Positions 1,005 through 32,781 of a DNA stretch of 63,054 nt are shown piece by piece. Under the pieces are notes generated by a model, which saw only the letters and a program-made list of their open reading frames with translations, searched no databases and had not been told where the DNA came from. Location of the stretch: assembly GCA_029246605.1 (NCBI GenBank), contig JAQWMV010000278.1:1-63054 (forward strand). Reading direction: 5' to 3'. The position numbers and the translations under genes were made by a program. This stretch comes from Pseudomonadales bacterium (GTDB taxonomy: Bacteria > Pseudomonadota > Gammaproteobacteria > Pseudomonadales > Azotimanducaceae). Each line of letters opens with the position of its first letter. Position 1 is the first letter of the stretch.

Positions 1005-1964
1005 TCAGGTCAGGTAAAAGATACCAAACCTATTGTTGTTATCGGTCCAGAAATGATACTGAGTGAATCCGGCATCCAATGCCATATAGAGAAACTCTTC
1101 TTTCGTGTATTTATGTGAATTCTCAGTATGAATCTTCTCGCCTGCCTTAAAGGAAATTGACGTGTCAGCAATTTGGACTTTCTGCTCTTGTAGGCTAGTG
1201 AGATACATCGCGACACAGCCTTTTTCTGGTTCATAGACCGCTGAGTGAACAAAATTCTTGAGGTCGAAGTCGGCATCAAATTTTTCATTCAGGTGAGTTA
1301 AAACATGAAGGTTGAACTTCTCAGTGATGCCATTGCTATCATTGTATGCTGCGTTTAACACAGCAATGTCTTTTTTTAGATCAACACCTACTAACATACC
1401 ACCTTCGTCACCGACCAAACGCCGCGCCCGACCCAGAAAAGCCCTGGCCTCAATCCGTCCAAAATTACCAATACTGGAGCCTGGGAAAAAAGCGACTCGT
1501 CTTGCGTCCATCGTAAAAGGCAGCTCAAAGTCTTCGGTAAAATCCAGGCAGGTAGCATGTACTTCAAGCCAGGGGAACTCCGAGGCCAATGCACCAGCTG
1601 CCGCACCCAGGTACTCTTTAGAAATATCCAGCGGTGCATATGCCCTTGGCCGTAAACTCTCCAGAAGAATACGAATTTTTTCACTGCTGCCACTGCCATA
1701 TTCAATCAGTAGACAATTTTCGCCCATCAAATCAGCCATCTCATCAGCATATTCCCGCAACAGCGAGATCTCTGTCCTGGTCAGGTAGTACTCCGGCTGG
1801 CGAGTAATTTCCATAAATAATTCAGAGCCCATTTCGTCGTAGAAAAACTTTGGCGAAATCATTTTTTGTGGGCGTTGCAATCCCAAGGTTACCTCATTTC
1901 GGGTATCTTCCAATACGGTGTTGATATCATAAAAGAAAAGTGAAGATTGACTGGGCACTGGCAT
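1005..1964 (-). CDS. egtD: L-histidine N-alpha-methyltransferase (ergothioneine biosynthesis EgtD)
   Basis: 319 aa SAM methyltransferase with 'LIEYGSGSSEKIRILL' and 'YAPLDISKEYL'. The stop of egtB lies 3 nt upstream of its start. Confidence 0.75.
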   Translation of the reverse strand: MPVPSQSSLFFYDINTVLEDTRNEVTLGLQRPQKMISPKFFYDEMGSELFMEITRQPEYYLTRTEISLLREYADEMADLMGENCLLIEYGSGSSEKIRILLESLRPRAYAPLDISKEYLGAAAGALASEFPWLEVHATCLDFTEDFELPFTMDARRVAFFPGSSIGNFGRIEARAFLGRARRLVGDEGGMLVGVDLKKDIAVLNAAYNDSNGITEKFNLHVLTHLNEKFDADFDLKNFVHSAVYEPEKGCVAMYLTSLQEQKVQIADTSISFKAGEKIHTENSHKYTKEEFLYMALDAGFTQYHFWTDNNNRFGIFYLT

Positions 1965-1967
1965 TGC

Positions 1968-3215
1968 TTACACGTCATTGGCAAGACGAATGCCAGTAAA
2001 CTGCCACCGATCTGCCGGATAGAAGAAATTTCGGTAACTGGGTCGAATATGCGACCGCGGCGTCACGCAGGAGCCTCCGCGCAGTACCAACTGATTGGCC
2101 ATAAACTTCCCATTGTATTCACCGAGTTGTCCTTGGAAAGATTTGAATCCAGGATAAGGCGAGTAGCTGCTTTGAGTCCACTCCCACAGGTTGCCAAACA
2201 TACCACTCAGTTCGCCAGTGTCAGCGGCCAGAGGATGAAAAAAACCGTCCTCCACAAAAACACCCGTTTGCTCCTGGCTGTTCGCAGCCACCTCCCATTC
2301 CATTTCTGTAGGCAATCTTGCGCCCTTCCACCTGGCAAAGGCATCGGCCTCATATCCACTCACGTGGCAAACAGGTTCCAGAGGATTTACGGGAGCAAGC
2401 CCAGCCAGGGTATACACGAAGTATTCGCTCTGTCGCTGTTGCCAATAAAGTGGCGCATAGTGTTTTTCTTCACTACGTTGCAAAGCCCATGCATCAGCCA
2501 ACCACAACTCCGGCCTTTGATATCCACCATCTTCCATGAACTCGATAAATTCGGCATTCGTAACCAGCCGATTAGACAGACAAAAGTCCCTGATGAGGAC
2601 ATCGTGGCATGGTGACTCGTTGTCAAAAGCAAACCCATCGCCCGCATTCACTCCGATTTGATAAATGCCTCCAGAAAACTCCTGAAAATTAAGCGTCTGG
2701 GGTTGTACATCCGGGACCGGCTTTCCTTGTTGATACATCGGCGATAGTGGATTGTGGCCAAGGTTGTACTTGAGATCAGTAAACAATAGTTCCTGATGCT
2801 GTTGCTCGTGGTGCAAGCCAAGAGTAGTTCGAAAACTGACTTCGGGGGATATTTTGCCAACCAGGAGCGATTCCATATGTCGATCAACATACGCACGATA
2901 ATCAAAGATGTCGGCTACGGTAGGTCGAGAAAGCAAGCCACGTTTTGCTCTCGGATGCTGTTCGCCAACGCCATTGTAGTAAGAATTAAATATCACTTCG
3001 TACGCAATGGAAAAAGGCTGATATCCAGGCAAAAATGGTTTCAAGACAAACGTTTCAAAAAACCAGGTGACATGGGCCAGATGCCATTTTGGTGGACTGG
3101 CATCCGGCATGGGTTGAACCAAGTAGTCTTCGACTTCAAGCGGTTGACAGATACGAACAGATTGTTTCCGCACTGACTCGTACTGGTTACAAATGCCAAC
3201 TTGCATCTGGTTCAC
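1968..3215 (-). CDS. egtB: Hercynine/cysteine sulfoxide synthase EgtB (DinB-like plus FGE-sulfatase domains)
   Basis: 415 aa. It has the DinB-type metal motif 'LGLHHEQQHQELL' and a C-terminal FGE-sulfatase-like region ('GNLWEWTQS', 'RGGSCVT'). Confidence 0.75.
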   Translation of the reverse strand: MNQMQVGICNQYESVRKQSVRICQPLEVEDYLVQPMPDASPPKWHLAHVTWFFETFVLKPFLPGYQPFSIAYEVIFNSYYNGVGEQHPRAKRGLLSRPTVADIFDYRAYVDRHMESLLVGKISPEVSFRTTLGLHHEQQHQELLFTDLKYNLGHNPLSPMYQQGKPVPDVQPQTLNFQEFSGGIYQIGVNAGDGFAFDNESPCHDVLIRDFCLSNRLVTNAEFIEFMEDGGYQRPELWLADAWALQRSEEKHYAPLYWQQRQSEYFVYTLAGLAPVNPLEPVCHVSGYEADAFARWKGARLPTEMEWEVAANSQEQTGVFVEDGFFHPLAADTGELSGMFGNLWEWTQSSYSPYPGFKSFQGQLGEYNGKFMANQLVLRGGSCVTPRSHIRPSYRNFFYPADRWQFTGIRLANDV

Positions 3216-3920: not shown

Positions 3921-4871
3921 TCATGAGACAAGATACGTCACAGGCATCAGGTAATGATCAAGCAATAACGCGATAAAAAGGGCCATTAGATAGACTATCG
4001 AATAGCGAAACGTTTCCATTGGGGCTTTTCTATTGTGACCAACCAGTAAGACCACACTCCAATAAAGAAACCCTGCGCCTAGTGCTATCGCACAAATGAA
4101 ATACAATAGATTGCTCATACCAATGAGGTAGGGCAGGAAGGTCGTTAGAATAAGGATGATGGTATACAACAAGATATGCATCTTGGTGTATTGCTCACCG
4201 TGAGTGACCGGTAGCATGGGAATGTCGACTTCCCGGTACTCATCTATACGATCAATCGCCAAAGCCCAAAAATGTGGTGGTGTCCAGGCAAATATAATCA
4301 GGACCAGAATCAACCCTCCACCATCAATACTGCCAGTGACCGCTGTCCAGCCAAACAATGGCGGTGCCGCCCCAAACAGCCCACCGATCACTATGTTTTG
4401 TGGGGTCGCTCGTTTAAGAAACATGGTGTAAATCACCCCGTATCCAATCCAGGAGGCCAGATTCAACCAGGCTGTTACAGGATTAATAAGCCCATATAAG
4501 ATCACGAACCCGGAAATGCCCGTCACAGCAACAAAAACACCACCCTGAAGATTGCTGATCCGGTCCTGTGCAATAGGTCGATTGCAAGTTCTGGCCATTC
4601 TTGCGTCGATGGATGAATCGAGCAGATGGTTAAGTGCTGCAGCAGAGCCTGCTACAAGCGCAACACCGAGATTTCCAAACACCAGTATCTGCCATGCAAC
4701 CATGCCGGTGGTTGCCAGAAACATCCCCACAAGCGTACAGAGCAACATGAGCAGCACAACTCTCGGCTTACAGATTTCCAGATAGTCACGCCACGGGGTG
4801 GGGATTGTTAAACTTATATCAGACACAATCGCTTCAACGGATTTGAGGGCAGGAGAGTTTACCGGATTCAA
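3921..4871 (-). CDS. ctaB: Protoheme IX farnesyltransferase (heme O synthase)
   Basis: 316 aa polytopic UbiA-superfamily protein ('LNHLLDSSIDARMARTCNRPI', 'PPHFWALA'). Confidence 0.85.
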   Translation of the reverse strand: MNPVNSPALKSVEAIVSDISLTIPTPWRDYLEICKPRVVLLMLLCTLVGMFLATTGMVAWQILVFGNLGVALVAGSAAALNHLLDSSIDARMARTCNRPIAQDRISNLQGGVFVAVTGISGFVILYGLINPVTAWLNLASWIGYGVIYTMFLKRATPQNIVIGGLFGAAPPLFGWTAVTGSIDGGGLILVLIIFAWTPPHFWALAIDRIDEYREVDIPMLPVTHGEQYTKMHILLYTIILILTTFLPYLIGMSNLLYFICAIALGAGFLYWSVVLLVGHNRKAPMETFRYSIVYLMALFIALLLDHYLMPVTYLVS

Positions 4872-5416
4872 CCAATTCTTGAAATCCGTAAAAGGTGGCG
4901 CAAATCCTCCATTAACGGTTTGCCTACCTTGTCCGGTGGAAAATACATCATGATATTGCCCAGTGGATCGATCAAAAACACCATATTATCGACTTCCGCT
5001 GTGATCTTGAGGAGCCGTTCAACAGATTCCGCGTCAACGAGTACGAGCAGAGACCTGTGTTCATTTTGAATCAAATCCATAAACGTCGTCGATAACTCAC
5101 GACGGGAAAGTGTCGCGCGGTGCACCCGTGCCGCATCCTTACCCAGCGCTATTCGCGCCTGTCTCGTCAAATATAATGTTTGTTCACAAACCTCAGCACA
5201 ATCTTCTTTAACAACCTGTATCAATGACCATTGCTTCGCCGCTGAGCGTAAAAATTCTATCTGAACCGGGGGATAAACCAACGTCCCCTGGTTCTTAGTA
5301 CTATCCGGGGTCTGATCCATCTGGAAACCTAGAAACGTAATGCCAGCAATAACAAATGGCAGTATCGCTATGCCAAGAATCGCCAGCAGTTCGCATCGTC
5401 CTGCACGTTTAGACAC
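4868..5416 (-). CDS. Membrane-anchored hypothetical protein of the cox cluster, SCO-like thioredoxin-fold candidate
   Basis: 182 aa with one N-terminal TM helix. 'WSLIQVVKEDCAEVCEQTL' parallels SCO1 'WSLLFFGFTYCPDVCPTTL'. It overlaps both flanking genes, which suggests translational coupling. Confidence 0.5.
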   Translation of the reverse strand: MSKRAGRCELLAILGIAILPFVIAGITFLGFQMDQTPDSTKNQGTLVYPPVQIEFLRSAAKQWSLIQVVKEDCAEVCEQTLYLTRQARIALGKDAARVHRATLSRRELSTTFMDLIQNEHRSLLVLVDAESVERLLKITAEVDNMVFLIDPLGNIMMYFPPDKVGKPLMEDLRHLLRISRIG

Positions 5417-6095
5417 TACTCACCACCCTTCGTCTTATACAAAAACAACTATATGCAATCGCAATCGCTGCTGCCATCAAAAACCACTGTATCGCATAGG
5501 CCCGATGTTTTTCCGGCAGTATGGTCGTTACTGGCCAATTTCGCGGCAGTGCATTTAGATCCGATTCACGCAAGCGAACGACCCATGGATAGGCAAGCTG
5601 ATTGGCCACCAAGACTTGCGGCTGCTGAGTTTGCACAATGGGGCCGGCTGTCGCCTGGGGATGACCTGCTAGAAACGGTGCCGATGGGTGGTAAACATGA
5701 CCGTAAAGAAACTTTGATTCCACAAGAGCAGGGATCTTGGGTTTGTCTTCACGGTCACGGCCCATGGGAACAAAACCTCGATTTATAAGTACACGCTTGG
5801 CGGTAGATTCCTCAAAAAACACATTCAGTACCTCAAACCCGACCACACCCTTCAGTATTCTATTGTCGAGTAGAAACAAACTTTCTGGATCATAGTGCCC
5901 ATGCAGTTGTATTGGGGTACCTGTCACCATTTCATCATCTGGCGCTTGCCAGGGGGAGGTAGCAAGTGCCTGTTGATCTGCTATCAAGACTAGCTTCTCT
6001 TCATAGCGACTGAGTTGCCAAAATCCAAGATAGACAAAGATCGTCAAAAAGCCCACTGAAAAGAGTGTCATCGGCCAGTTAAAAATAAAATGCAT
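5409..6095 (-). CDS. SURF1 family cytochrome oxidase biogenesis protein
   Basis: 228 aa with N- and C-terminal TM helices. It has 'LGFWQLSRYEEK' and 'HRAYAIQWF', both typical of SURF1/Shy1. Confidence 0.75.
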   Translation of the reverse strand: MHFIFNWPMTLFSVGFLTIFVYLGFWQLSRYEEKLVLIADQQALATSPWQAPDDEMVTGTPIQLHGHYDPESLFLLDNRILKGVVGFEVLNVFFEESTAKRVLINRGFVPMGRDREDKPKIPALVESKFLYGHVYHPSAPFLAGHPQATAGPIVQTQQPQVLVANQLAYPWVVRLRESDLNALPRNWPVTTILPEKHRAYAIQWFLMAAAIAIAYSCFCIRRRVVSSV

Positions 6096-6165
6096 TTAAT
6101 CGTTAATCGCGTAACAATGTCGCATGCGAATTCTTAAGCGACATTGGTCGTAGTAGAGAGGATAT

Positions 6166-24452: not shown

Positions 24453-28434
<3,982 letters not shown>

Positions 28435-28438
<4 letters not shown>

Positions 28439-29532: not shown

Positions 29533-29632
29533 ATGACTTCCGATTCTTGACCTCTTTTAGTCGTTAGTTTGTTAACTTGTTAATCTATGGCACAGCATGT
29601 TAGTTAGTGCTTACTGATCGTATAGAGCTTAT

Positions 29633-30736
29633 TTAAAGCATCATAGGACTGACAACATAGAGCGAGTTTGGATCCTCCAGATCAGTTAGTACACAGGCGC
29701 TATTGGTATCAATAAACGTTACCCTCACCCGCTCACCCTGCATTGTGGATAACGCTTCGAGCAGAAAGCCAACGTTGAAGGCAATCTCCATAGGCTCACC
29801 ATCGTACTCTACGGCAACAGTTTCTTCCGCCTCTTCGTGTAAAGGATTATTAGCATGCAAATCCAACTTGCCTGACGACAACTGAAGACGAACGTTGCGA
29901 TACATCTCATTAGACAAAATGGAAGTTCTATTAAGTGCCTCGCGGATTTCCAGGCGGTTCCCCTGCATTACTTTGTCACCACCGCTGGGGATGGCTCTCG
30001 AGTAATCTGGATACGTGCTATCGATTAACTTAGTTGTTAAAACGGCATTCGCGATGCTTGCCCGCATATGATTACTCGAAAAATGCAACGCTACAGCTCC
30101 CTTCGGAGCATCACTGAGCAGGCGAGATAGCTCTTGAACACCTTTTCTCGGAACGATGTACTGTTGTAGCTCCCCGGATGTCTGATGTTCACCAAAACAC
30201 GTCGCCAGACGCTGACCGTTAGTAGCAACCATCCGAATCTGATTTTGGTCCAGCTCAACTAAAACACCATTGAAAAACAATCGTACATCTTGCTGGGCCA
30301 TCGCAAAACTGGTTTTGCCCAACAAAGAACTCAACAATGATGAATCAACATCAACTGTTGAACCGTCGGTTTCTGGCTCTACGTTAGGAAAATCCACCGC
30401 CGGGAGCGTCGCCAGATGAGACCTAAAACTCCCACTCACGACGGAAAGCCTGCCTTCATCAAGCTTTAGAGTTAACGACGCTTTATCCGCTAGACTACGA
30501 CAGATATCCATCAATTTCCTTGCTGGAACCGTCAATTCGCCCGCTTCGGCCACCTGCACGTCTGTAATTTTTGCCGTAAGCTCTACTTCTTCGTCTGTGC
30601 CTGTAATTGTCAGGCTGTCATCTTCCGCTACCAATAGCAGATTAGACAAAATAGGTAGCGTTTGACGGCGACCCACGACTCCCGCCACCAACTGCAGTGG
30701 ATCTAACAATGATTCTCGACTTATTGTTAGTTTCAT
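29633..30736 (-). CDS. dnaN: DNA polymerase III beta sliding clamp paralog, divergent copy (dnaA-proximal)
   Basis: 367 aa, full length with no stops. By eye about half of its residues are identical to the neighbouring copy. It has 'ATNGQRLA', 'YPDYSRAIP', 'NNPLHEEAEE', 'AFNVGFLLEAL' and the C-terminal 'YVVSPMML'. It starts 8 nt after the dnaA stop. Confidence 0.85.
   Translation of the reverse strand: MKLTISRESLLDPLQLVAGVVGRRQTLPILSNLLLVAEDDSLTITGTDEEVELTAKITDVQVAEAGELTVPARKLMDICRSLADKASLTLKLDEGRLSVVSGSFRSHLATLPAVDFPNVEPETDGSTVDVDSSLLSSLLGKTSFAMAQQDVRLFFNGVLVELDQNQIRMVATNGQRLATCFGEHQTSGELQQYIVPRKGVQELSRLLSDAPKGAVALHFSSNHMRASIANAVLTTKLIDSTYPDYSRAIPSGGDKVMQGNRLEIREALNRTSILSNEMYRNVRLQLSSGKLDLHANNPLHEEAEETVAVEYDGEPMEIAFNVGFLLEALSTMQGERVRVTFIDTNSACVLTDLEDPNSLYVVSPMML
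29744..29752 (-). promoter_or_regulatory. Perfect DnaA box (TTATCCACA on the minus strand) inside the 3' part of the divergent dnaN
   Basis: TGTGGATAA is read on the plus strand, about 210 nt upstream of the start of the second dnaN. A single perfect 9-mer could occur by chance. Confidence 0.35.
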
Positions 30737-30744
30737 AACCTCTC

Positions 30745-32061
30745 TTAGGATGTCAATATTCGTAACAAGTTATTATAATCCACATCAATATCGCGGTTGT
30801 CCTCACGAAGCTCTTCTATTCTACGAACAGCATGCAAGACCGTTGTATGGTCTTTGCCGCCGAAAGAGTCACCGATTTCAGGTAAACTATGGTTGGTAAG
30901 TTCCTTAGCCAGGGACATAGCCATTTGTCTAGGTCGTGCCACTGACCGGGAGCGTCTCTTAGAGTGCAAATCGCTAATGCGAATCTTAAAGTAGTCAGCC
31001 ACTGTTTTCTGAATATTATCAATACCAACCTGACGATCCTGGATAGCAATTAAATCTCTTAATGACTCTCGTACCTGATCAACCGAGATGCCTCGCCCTG
31101 TAAATTTCGCATTGGCAATGACCCGTTTTAATGCACCTTCCAGCTCTCTAACGTTCGAACGAATACGTTCCGCAACGAAAAAGGCGGGTTCCTGTGGCAA
31201 TTGAACCTGCTCCAAGTCAGCTTTCTTCATCAAAATAGCGACTCTGGTTTCTAAATCAGGCGGCTCAAGCGTTGCTGTCATTCCCCAGACGAAACGGCTT
31301 TCCAATCGCTCTTGAAGATTCTCTATTTCTTTAGGATAGCGATCACAGGTCAGTATTATTTGATTACCATCCTCTTGTAACCTATTAAATACATGGAAAA
31401 ATTCTTCTTGAGACTTCTGACCGTTTGCAAGGAACTGTATATCATCCATCAGCAATACATCTACGGATCGATAGTATTGCGTAAAGTCGGACATGGTGCC
31501 GTGTTCAATGGCCCTTACCATATCCTCCATAAATCTTTTCGAATACATGTAGCTGACATTGAGATGGGGATGTTTCTCTAATATTGAATTGCCGATGGCA
31601 TGCATCAAATGTGTCTTGCCTAATCCCACACCCCCATAGAACAATAACGGGTTGTAAGACGCTCCGCCGACGTTCTCAGAAACCTGTAAAGCTGCTGCTC
31701 TGGCAATTTGGTTCGATTTACCCTCGACAAAAGTATCAAAGGTAAAATCCTTATTCAGTCCAAGTAGGGGGAAAAAAGACTCTCTTTCCACGAACGCATT
31801 ATCGGCCTTTGAACCTTTCGCTCTGTGTGTACTCCCTATTTCTAGGCTCACCGACTGGTCACTGTTTTGCTTAACGAGTTCAATTATCCTCTTAAGAAAC
31901 TGATCGTTTATTTTATCGAGAATATATTTATTAGGCGCTAGTAGGCGTACATCGCCGTCTCCTGGTACTAATTGCAGGGGTCTTATCCAAGTATTAAATT
32001 GCTGTGGTGAGAGTTCGTCTTCCAGACTAGCTAAACATTGTTGCCAAATACTTGTCCCCAC
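30745..32061 (-). CDS. dnaA: Chromosomal replication initiator protein DnaA
   Basis: 438 aa with a GTG start, the AAA+ motif '[13 protein letters not shown]' and the domain IV motif 'DHTTVLHA'. Confidence 0.95.
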
Positions 32062-32305
32062 AAAACCCCCGTGACTACGTTTATGATTATAGCTTCTTGT
32101 TATCTACCAACATGGCTATGCTGAATATACTGAAAAGCTGTTTTGTGCTGTATGTTTGAGTAGTTCATACAGAACACAGAATAGTAACGCCAAACATAGC
32201 GTCAAGCCAAGTGCTGTGATAAAAAAAACAATAAAAAAAATGTTTATTTTTCAATATGTTATACATTAATCACCTCAGTAAGCAGTGATCAACCTGTGTG
32301 TAACT

Positions 32306-32314
32306 TGTGGATAT
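32306..32314 (-). promoter_or_regulatory. DnaA box, 8/9 match (TGTGGATAT on the plus strand)
   Basis: It has one mismatch to TGTGGATAA and lies 39 bp from the perfect box in the same orientation. Confidence 0.45.
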
Positions 32315-32344
32315 AATGCAAATAACCCTAAAGCATTTTTTCTT

Positions 32345-32353
32345 TGTGGATAA
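32345..32353 (-). promoter_or_regulatory. DnaA box, perfect (TGTGGATAA on the plus strand = TTATCCACA)
   Basis: It is an exact consensus 9-mer within the rpmH-dnaA intergenic region. Confidence 0.65.
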
Positions 32354-32440
32354 AGCAGTGTTTAATCCAACAGATATACACATCTTATGACAGGATGTCA
32401 GATATCTAATTCATAAGTTATGCCAACTACAACATACTGA

Positions 32441-32530
32441 TTATTAAATAAAAAATATACTAATCCACAGAAATCTTGCTATTAATAACAATAACAATAA
32501 TTTTATATATATATGTATTATTCATTATTA
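32441..32530. other. AT-rich tract, candidate DNA unwinding element
   Basis: The sequence 'ttattaaataaaaaatatac...attaataacaataacaataattttatatatatatgtattattcattatta' is almost devoid of G/C apart from the embedded DnaA-box-like 9-mer. Confidence 0.4.
32461..32469 (+). promoter_or_regulatory. DnaA box, 8/9 match (TAATCCACA)
   Basis: It has one mismatch, is in the opposite orientation to the other two boxes, and is embedded in the AT-rich tract. Confidence 0.45.
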
Positions 32531-32588
32531 CCCTAAGCTCGGTTTCCTTCTGTTTTTCAAAAACTACCAATTTGAGGTAGTGTTTGGT

Positions 32589-32617
32589 TTGACTGCGATT
32601 AGCTTCTTCTTTAGAAT
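32589..32617 (+). promoter_or_regulatory. Sigma70-type promoter for rpmH-rnpA (TTGACT-17 nt-TAGAAT)
   Basis: The -35 element TTGACT is at 32589-32594 and the -10 element TAGAAT is at 32612-32617, with a 17-nt spacer. It lies about 30 nt upstream of the rpmH ATG. Confidence 0.55.
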
Positions 32618-32646
32618 CCGCGCTCTCTCAATTGGGTCATCCAAAG

Positions 32647-32781
32647 ATGAAAAGAACATTCCAACCAAGTGTAATTAAGCGCAAACGAACCCATGGTTTT
32701 AGAGCACGAATGGCGACTAAGGCTGGTCGTATGGTACTTAAGCGAAGAAGAGCTAAGGGTCGAAAAGCGCTCAGTGCTTGA
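32647..32781 (+). CDS. rpmH: 50S ribosomal protein L34
   Basis: This gene is not in the ORF track because it is under 60 aa. My translation is '[44 protein letters not shown]' (44 aa), the hallmark L34 sequence. Confidence 0.95.

Follow-up and report, generated by a model that had tools for sequence, protein, structure and literature searches.

The 63,054-nucleotide stretch of DNA analysed here (contig JAQWMV010000278.1 of assembly GCA_029246605.1, from a Pseudomonadales bacterium; hereafter the window) carries two genes for the β sliding clamp, dnaN, side by side on the minus strand between dnaA and recF. The dnaA-proximal copy, N1, starts 8 nucleotides (nt) after the dnaA stop codon, with a GAGAGG ribosome-binding site directly upstream, and the stop codon of the recF-proximal copy, N2, overlaps the recF start by 4 nt. 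Both products belong to the clamp family TIGR00663 'dnan', scoring 311.3 bits (N1) and 349.4 bits (N2) against a cut-off of 137.65. N2 closely resembles the canonical β clamp in its partner-binding cleft, whereas the cleft of N1 has been remodelled.

This cleft is held to be among the most conserved protein-protein interfaces of bacteria, and its standing as a drug target rests on the view that it can hardly change and still function (PMC11621423; PMC11139829). An 18-residue definition given in a 2024 review served as an independent pocket list: R152, L155, T172, G174, H175, R176, L177, P242, R246, V247, V360 and M362 form subsite I and H175, N320, Y323, V344, M362, P363, M364 and R365 form subsite II, with H175 spanning both subsites in E. 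coli (PMC11139829).

When N1, N2 and E. coli β are aligned with MAFFT (positions follow E. coli numbering throughout), N1 shows D173N, H175Q, V247A, S322G, Y323F, M362S and R365M. This reproduces every substitution that the first-pass annotation of this DNA had read by eye, along with the N2 motifs it had quoted, and adds three changes absent from it, L155F, F241Y and S346A. The motifs read TNGQRL, PDYSRA, NVGF and VVSPMML in N1 and TDGHRL, PDYERV, NVSY and VVMPMKL in N2. The annotation had placed its substitutions in the pocket, and H175, V247, Y323, M362 and R365 are indeed on the pocket list, as is L155, whereas D173 and S322 merely flank pocket residues. The N1 of the window thus departs from the canonical cleft by L155F, H175Q, V247A, M362S, R365M and Y323F; the N2 cleft is canonical apart from Y154F and the conservative R365K, only the latter falling on the list. 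Pairwise identity is 52% between N1 and N2, 43% between N1 and E. coli β, and 49% between N2 and E. coli β.

The same division extends across a whole family: 349 aligned clamps fall into three clean classes, N1-type, N2-type and single-copy canonical. The best 120 homologs of N1 (53-97% identity) all come from uncultured Gammaproteobacteria or 'Pseudomonadales' metagenome bins, and nearly all carry a signature of F155, N173, Q175, A247, A346 and S362 together with a hydrophobic residue at 365. The best 120 homologs of N2 all have F154, L155, D173, H175, V247, S346, M362 and K365, and 75 single-copy relatives (Pseudomonas, Halomonas, Marinobacter and others) all have the canonical residues from Y154 through to R365. 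Canonical comparison loci were drawn from a scan with the peptide FAMAQQDV, which among the 80 loci listed returned mostly Pseudomonas and Halomonas dnaN and is no census of carriers. The N1 signature recurs in 144 N1-type proteins, all 144 with an intact reading frame. Clade-wide, N1 has replaced five of the 18 cleft residues (L155F, H175Q, V247A and M362S, and a hydrophobic residue for R365), and the flanking positions carry D173N, F241Y and S346A. The substitutions listed in the first-pass annotation are thus family-wide except for S322G and Y323F, which are local to the sub-lineage of the window: 97% of N1-type proteins retain Y323, and position 322 varies to the same degree in each of the three classes.

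The gene order dnaA-N1-N2-recF-gyrB is found in 17 of 17 N1-bearing loci examined (the window, L001-L006, L009, L010, L083-L086, L089, L090, L092 and L093), and 31 further N2-type matches pair with an N1-type match on a contig of equal length. The sole family-level name attached to any member, through the N2 matches, is Candidatus Azotimanducaceae, of the order Pseudomonadales. Among the best 150 of 1.84 billion representatives clustered at 50% identity, the full N1 signature appears in 12 only, all of them with the F104/S106 pair described below, and H175Q is seen only in the two-clamp lineage.

The changes in N1 are concentrated at the cleft. A position was taken as fixed differently if one residue was conserved to 90% or more in N1, N2 and canonical clamps shared another that was likewise conserved to 90% or more, and the two residues differed. 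Just seven of 366 positions qualify, 155, 173, 175, 241, 247, 346 and 362, and all seven lie in the cleft or no more than two residues from it; four are on the 18-residue pocket list (hypergeometric p = 1.3e-4) and six are within one residue of it (p = 5.6e-6). By the same test no position is specific to N2. In addition, the R or K at position 365 gives way to M, V or I in the N1 clade and position 344 turns variable. N1 departs from an otherwise conserved residue at 21 positions, 12 of them in or beside the cleft (155, 158, 173, 175, 239, 241, 247, 344, 346, 347, 361 and 362), and at 97 positions all three classes share one residue that is at least 90% conserved. Inside the N1 clade, where average identity is under 60%, conservation reaches 88% or more at 16 of the 18 pocket positions, and the new cleft residues are 98-100% conserved among members that are about 55-60% identical, the pattern expected of a changed but constrained binding specificity. 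These comparisons support a remodelling of the N1 cleft that is truly present and selected.

The two copies descend from a common duplication. In neighbour-joining bootstraps, the N1 clade is recovered in 200 of 200 replicates, the N2 clade in 197 of 200, and N1 and N2 group together in 179 of 200; the stem is 0.128 long for N1 and 0.047 for N2. N1 and N2 share the derived residues S104F, F106S and Y154F, which canonical clamps lack, and the N2-like K365 survives in a few N1-type proteins. In 32 genomes, distances between N1 orthologs track those between N2 orthologs (r = 0.82, slope 1.63), so that N1 evolves about 1.6 times faster than N2, and the N1-N2 distance inside each genome is constant at 0.67-0.84. 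The tree, the shared residues and the co-divergence together indicate one old tandem duplication, inherited vertically as a pair and without homogenisation between the copies. The remark in the first-pass annotation that the divergent copy occupies the canonical position after dnaA is consequently uninformative, since after a tandem duplication both copies sit in the dnaA-recF slot. The ratio of nonsynonymous to synonymous substitution rates (dN/dS) is 0.036 for N1 and 0.025 for N2 in an ortholog pair at 85% and 91% identity, and 0.40 and 0.13 in a very close pair in which counts are small, the N1 figure resting on 13 amino-acid differences. Judged by these ratios, both copies are under purifying selection.

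Single-copy relatives help to order the events. L087 and L088 (GCA_004213725.1), which are nested among tandem lineages, have only an N2-type clamp between dnaA and recF (5001-6098 in each); no N1 relic was found in their dnaA-dnaN spacers, and when tested for N1/N2 chimerism their clamps are N2-type throughout. The deep single-copy clamp of L091 (4001-5110; P0266) has F104, S106, K365, N173 and Y241, yet retains H175, V247, S346 and M362, and may be close to the pre-duplication state. Since the F104/S106 swap is present in both paralogs and also in the single-copy relatives L087, L088 and L091, it is a lineage marker older than the duplication. The recF called beside the L091 clamp is short, at 292 amino acids (aa). 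Within RecF, lineage-specific columns are few and scattered and provide no lead.

Outside the cleft, N1 retains much of what marks a ring clamp. The clamp domains PF00712, PF02767 and PF02768 are all recorded on N1 homologs, and an AlphaFold2 model of N1, made with 29 family members as input, reaches a mean predicted local distance difference test score (pLDDT) of 88.6 and a predicted TM-score (pTM) of 0.83. Foldseek matches this model best to P. aeruginosa β (6ams; TM-score 0.95, root-mean-square deviation 1.7 Å); no solved structure is nearer than about 50% identity to N1, and the existing ones are all canonical. Residues that contact DNA or line the channel, and the 148-152 loop, are kept in the N1 clade (R24 in 91%, Q149 in 99%, R152 in 100%), as are the interface-core residues I78, I272 and L273. 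Also in the core of the ring interface, both paralogs have S in place of F106 and gain an F at 104 ('GRFRSTL' in N2, 'GSFRSHL' in N1), the N1 clade loses E298 (Q, L or M in 100%) and R105 (in about 86%), and K277 becomes L or M in N1.

We consider it reasonably probable that an old tandem duplication was followed by re-specification of one cleft, leaving N2 as the general replicative clamp and N1 as a specialised one. On this interpretation, the tandem duplication of dnaN between dnaA and recF took place in the ancestor of a lineage of uncultured marine Pseudomonadales in which the label Candidatus Azotimanducaceae is attached to some members. The downstream copy, N2, would have stayed the general-purpose replicative clamp. 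The upstream copy, N1, would have kept what a ring clamp needs, i.e., the three domains, the fold and R24, Q149, I78, I272 and L273, while its cleft was rebuilt by L155F, D173N, H175Q, F241Y, V247A, S346A, M362S and replacement of K or R at 365 by M, V or I; the rebuilt residues would then have been frozen by purifying selection. N1 would serve a subset of partners or a lineage-specific partner, and N2 the standard set. Of this account, the duplication and its age, the joint inheritance of the copies, the purifying selection and the clustering of changes at the cleft are well supported; the altered specificity and the division of labour are inferred.

The likely consequences for binding can be predicted from residue chemistry. 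M362 is the methionine that separates the two subsites (PMC11703123; PMC11139829), and the main hydrogen bonds to bound peptides go to the backbone of G174, M362, P363 and R365 (PMC11703123). M362S is predicted to remove the methionine between the subsites. V247A and M362S together would widen the subsite junction, and L155F would partly fill subsite I, which is thus expected to be reshaped by a smaller residue at 247 and a bulkier one at 155. S346A and a hydrophobic residue at 365 would make subsite II, the seat of the motif Gln, less polar. Because the hydrogen bonds go mostly to the backbone, binding of short linear motifs should persist in N1, with its preference shifted.

Several observations weigh against this interpretation. 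An unrelated 4.29-Mb contig has a single dnaN, at its dnaA-recF locus (L094 and L095, 4001-5104), and the clamp encoded there, P0313, carries S346A, M362S and M364S, so at least part of the N1 repertoire is compatible with a housekeeping clamp. Among the 150 best representatives, M362S occurs in three besides the 12 with the full signature, P0313 among them, V247A in four and L155F in one, and such changes need not abolish binding of standard partners. The claim of the first-pass annotation that a remodelled cleft implies a different client set therefore stands in part: the cleft is remodelled and selected, its new residues being 98-100% conserved, but, as P0313 illustrates with M362S and S346A in a sole clamp, a changed cleft does not prove that standard clients have been lost. 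The absence of N1 from L087 and L088 suggests that it was lost at least twice and is dispensable in some relatives. No N1 client was found: the 63-kb window holds none of the genes for DnaE, HolA, Hda, DinB or MutS. Finally, the trees are neighbour-joining only (a numpy implementation), and the N2 clade has short internal branches.

Could N1 instead be a spare clamp that is insensitive to an inhibitor, its cleft escaping a griselimycin-like peptide produced by the cell itself or by neighbouring cells, a SocB-like toxin or a phage protein while replication is still supported? Producers of griselimycin and mycoplanecin protect themselves by a second dnaN with a changed pocket, and the toleration of M362S and S346A in the sole housekeeping clamp P0313 means that an altered cleft can do the essential job. 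However, griR and mypR lie inside nonribosomal peptide synthetase (NRPS) clusters beside transposases in actinomycete producers (Streptomyces and Actinoplanes), whereas the window, reaching about 30 kb around N1, has no NRPS, polyketide synthase (PKS) or transposase gene, and housekeeping genes surround the pair. Whereas griR and mypR are patchily distributed and tied to clusters, N1 and N2 sit in the core slot between dnaA and recF at all 17 loci and diverge in step, by vertical descent, across the clade; the N1 cleft residues are frozen (98-100%) and not diversifying as in an arms race, and there is no PADLOC defence match. The griselimycin-type self-resistance raised in the first-pass annotation thus finds no support, and we regard an inhibitor-insensitive spare clamp of any kind as distinctly unlikely. 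Relaxed constraint would offer another account, in which N1 is a redundant duplicate drifting to loss; its 1.6-fold faster evolution, its loss on at least two occasions and the dN/dS of 0.40 in the closest comparison (13 amino-acid differences only) would fit. That account is very improbable, being largely refuted by the 98-100% conservation of the changed cleft residues; besides, the frame is intact in all 144 N1-type proteins, dN/dS falls to 0.036 at greater distance, 97 positions are conserved and identical in all classes, and the AlphaFold2 model is confident. It is harder still to credit N1 as a foreign clamp, acquired from a phage, a plasmid or a distant bacterium and inserted beside the native dnaN. 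N1 is about equally distant from N2 (52% identity) and from Pseudomonas clamps (about 51%), as an import might be, but F104, S106 and F154 are common to N1 and N2 alone, the two are sisters in 179 of 200 bootstraps, some N1-type proteins have the N2-like K365, and the GC content and codon usage of N1 match the rest of the window, i.e., are native; in a phage collection the best match reached 43% identity, and the top rows were Salmonella genome records held there. An assembly artefact is excluded by the data given so far.

A further alternative, compatible with N1 as a specialised clamp, is that N1 and N2 form a heterodimeric ring, either exclusively or beside homodimers, so that every ring would combine a canonical cleft with a remodelled one. 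The genes lie next to each other without an intervening terminator and have similar codon adaptation, and both proteins share the S104F/F106S interface swap and retain I78, I272 and L273. Six ion pairs have been listed for each clamp interface (PMC11139829). N1 has lost ion-pair residues on both faces (E298 in 100%, R105 in about 86%); by count, about 6 of 12 ion pairs would be missing from an N1 homodimer and about 3 of 12 from a heterodimer. An E. coli clamp with a single working cleft is reported to support viability (PMC3022782). On the other hand, the interface changes are not obviously complementary between N1 and N2, and such a ring seems unlikely, if less so than an inhibitor-insensitive spare. 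We know of no natural heterodimeric bacterial β clamp.

DnaA offers a lead to a possible partner. In the two-clamp lineage, its linker is very short and ends in a conserved hydrophobic motif, SF[FY]PLL[DG]LN, present in 16 of 17 tandem loci and in both N1-less loci (the window, L001-L004, L006, L009, L010, L083-L090, L092 and L093) and absent from L091 and all canonical relatives. The motif resembles the clamp-binding motifs of MutL (QPLLI), Hda (QLSLPL) and Pol IV (QLVLGL) (PMC11139829), with an aromatic residue in place of Gln. By analogy with heterotrimeric archaeal PCNA, a heterodimeric ring might act as an asymmetric 'toolbelt' whose remodelled cleft is reserved for a lineage-specific partner, with DnaA as a candidate through its linker motif; this elaboration is a shade less probable than the heterodimer itself. 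Retention of the motif in N1-less lineages argues against an exclusive DnaA-N1 link. If DnaA were such a partner, the initiator would be coupled directly to the loaded clamp.

N1 can be set against several known systems. With the canonical β clamp (E. coli 1MMI, P. aeruginosa 6AMS), it shares the three-domain fold, membership of TIGR00663, the dnaA-dnaN-recF locus, the DNA-contact residues and most of the polymerase-facing surface; it differs in five of 18 cleft residues and their flanks, in the shift of F106 to F104 and in the loss of E298. GriR and MypR are alike in being encoded by a second dnaN in the genome and in their expected changed cleft binding, but they are producer-specific and cluster-linked, whereas N1 is gammaproteobacterial and vertically inherited in a core replication locus, with no cluster within about 30 kb. 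DnaN-2 of B. anthracis and other Bacillus species is likewise a chromosomal accessory clamp paralog; it belongs to another phylum, the two Bacillus copies are about 40% identical, and the accessory one is not in tandem at dnaA. In the available part of the report on Bacillus, the accessory copy is dispensable and the canonical copy carries the repair functions, and no cleft-focused remodelling is described (PMC3290774). N1 similarly appears dispensable, having been lost in some lineages. In Crenarchaeota, PCNA1, 2 and 3 form a heterotrimer whose subunits have different partner preferences; these are paralogous clamp subunits as well, of another protein family, and a heteromer is only proposed here. 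A full-text literature search returned no account of paired tandem dnaN genes in Gammaproteobacteria, nor of any clamp family having the N1 cleft.

Throughout a lineage, an unchanged clamp is accompanied by a second one in which the cleft was altered at about eight positions and has since stayed fixed; this amounts to a natural experiment on how clamp-partner specificity is encoded and a test case for the sharing of clamp traffic among replication, repair and initiation control. Lineage-conserved remodelling of a supposedly immutable interface would surprise replication specialists, and it is a caution for cleft-directed antibiotics, as viable alternative clefts exist. H175, which is Q in N1, is presumably the residue targeted by covalent clamp inhibitors, for which PDB titles say just 'covalently bound peptide'. 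Should the heterodimer prove real, it could be the first heteromeric bacterial clamp. Every carrier seen to date is uncultured, and synthetic genes would therefore be needed to make the proteins.

The features of the region are collected in Table 1. On the plus strand past dnaA lie rnpA, yidD, yidC, mnmE, mnmG, rsmG, parA and parB, and the GC skew of the window switches sign at about 32 kb, marking this as the origin region of a gammaproteobacterial chromosome. The dnaA-rnpA intergenic region is probably oriC together with the dnaA promoter region. The count of DnaA boxes across the window is not above chance, and only the local cluster of three upstream of dnaA is suggestive. A perfect DnaA box, TTATCCACA, also lies within the 3' end of N1 (29744-29752, minus strand). 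Because no terminator-like site was found on the minus strand of the N1-N2 spacer, the two clamp genes are probably co-transcribed; their codon adaptation, a proxy for expression, is indistinguishable. An Rfam scan of the window gave no match at the gathering score, and hence no rRNA for taxonomic use.

Table 1. Features of the dnaN region, with positions in the 63-kb window
Feature	Position	Strand	Basis and remarks
gyrB	24972-27386	-	Open reading frame (ORF) list
recF	27383-28438	-	ORF list; SMC_N and AAA_23 domains recorded on orthologs in related loci
N2, recF-proximal β clamp, 365 aa	28435-29532	-	ORF list, alignment; TIGR00663, 349.4 bits
N1-N2 spacer, 100 nt	29533-29632	-	Terminator search
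N1, dnaA-proximal β-clamp paralog with remodelled cleft, 367 aa	29633-30736	-	ORF list, MAFFT alignment
C-terminal VVSPMML of N1 (M362S, 'gate' methionine lost; R365M)	29636-29656	-	Alignment
NSACV of N1 (S346A, A347C), adjoining subsite II residue 344	29690-29704	-	Alignment
YPDYSRA of N1 (F241Y, V247A; subsite I)	29993-30013	-	Alignment
TNGQRL of N1, residues 172-177 (D173N, H175Q)	30206-30223	-	Alignment, pocket list
F155 codon of N1 (L155F; subsite I)	30272-30274	-	F in 99% of N1-type proteins, L in 100% of others
dnaA, 438 aa	30745-32061	-	ORF list; DnaA Pfam domains recorded on orthologs in related loci
DnaA linker motif SFFPLLGLN, residues 95-103	31753-31779	-	Lineage-specific; resembles a clamp-binding motif; lead only
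dnaA-rnpA intergenic region	32062-32777		GC-skew switch; DnaA-box-like sites at 32306-32314, 32345-32353 and 32461-32469

Related loci show some variation of their own. The N1-N2 spacer is about 510 nt in L006 (5096-5606) versus 25-100 nt in other loci. In the closest relative, recF is 283 aa long and follows a 200-nt gap in L083 (11299-12150), versus 351 aa and an overlap with N2 in L084 (9016-10071); L084 has the same clamp, and a frameshift introduced by sequencing or assembly probably accounts for the short form in L083. The N1 forms of L093 (P0263) and L092 (P0264), at 4001-5104 in both, are very divergent, sharing about 46-48% identity with the rest of the N1 type; both loci keep the tandem, and one of the two proteins retains L155 and the other K365. 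The database representative P0284 (615 aa) has about 250 extra N-terminal residues before a canonical clamp (250-614), reflecting a gene-calling error or a fusion. At L095 an integrase-like gene (rve_3) sits between rnpA and dnaA. At the far end of the window, two adjacent ORFs of 319 and 415 aa (1005-3215, minus strand) bear a by-eye likeness to EgtD and EgtB of ergothioneine biosynthesis.

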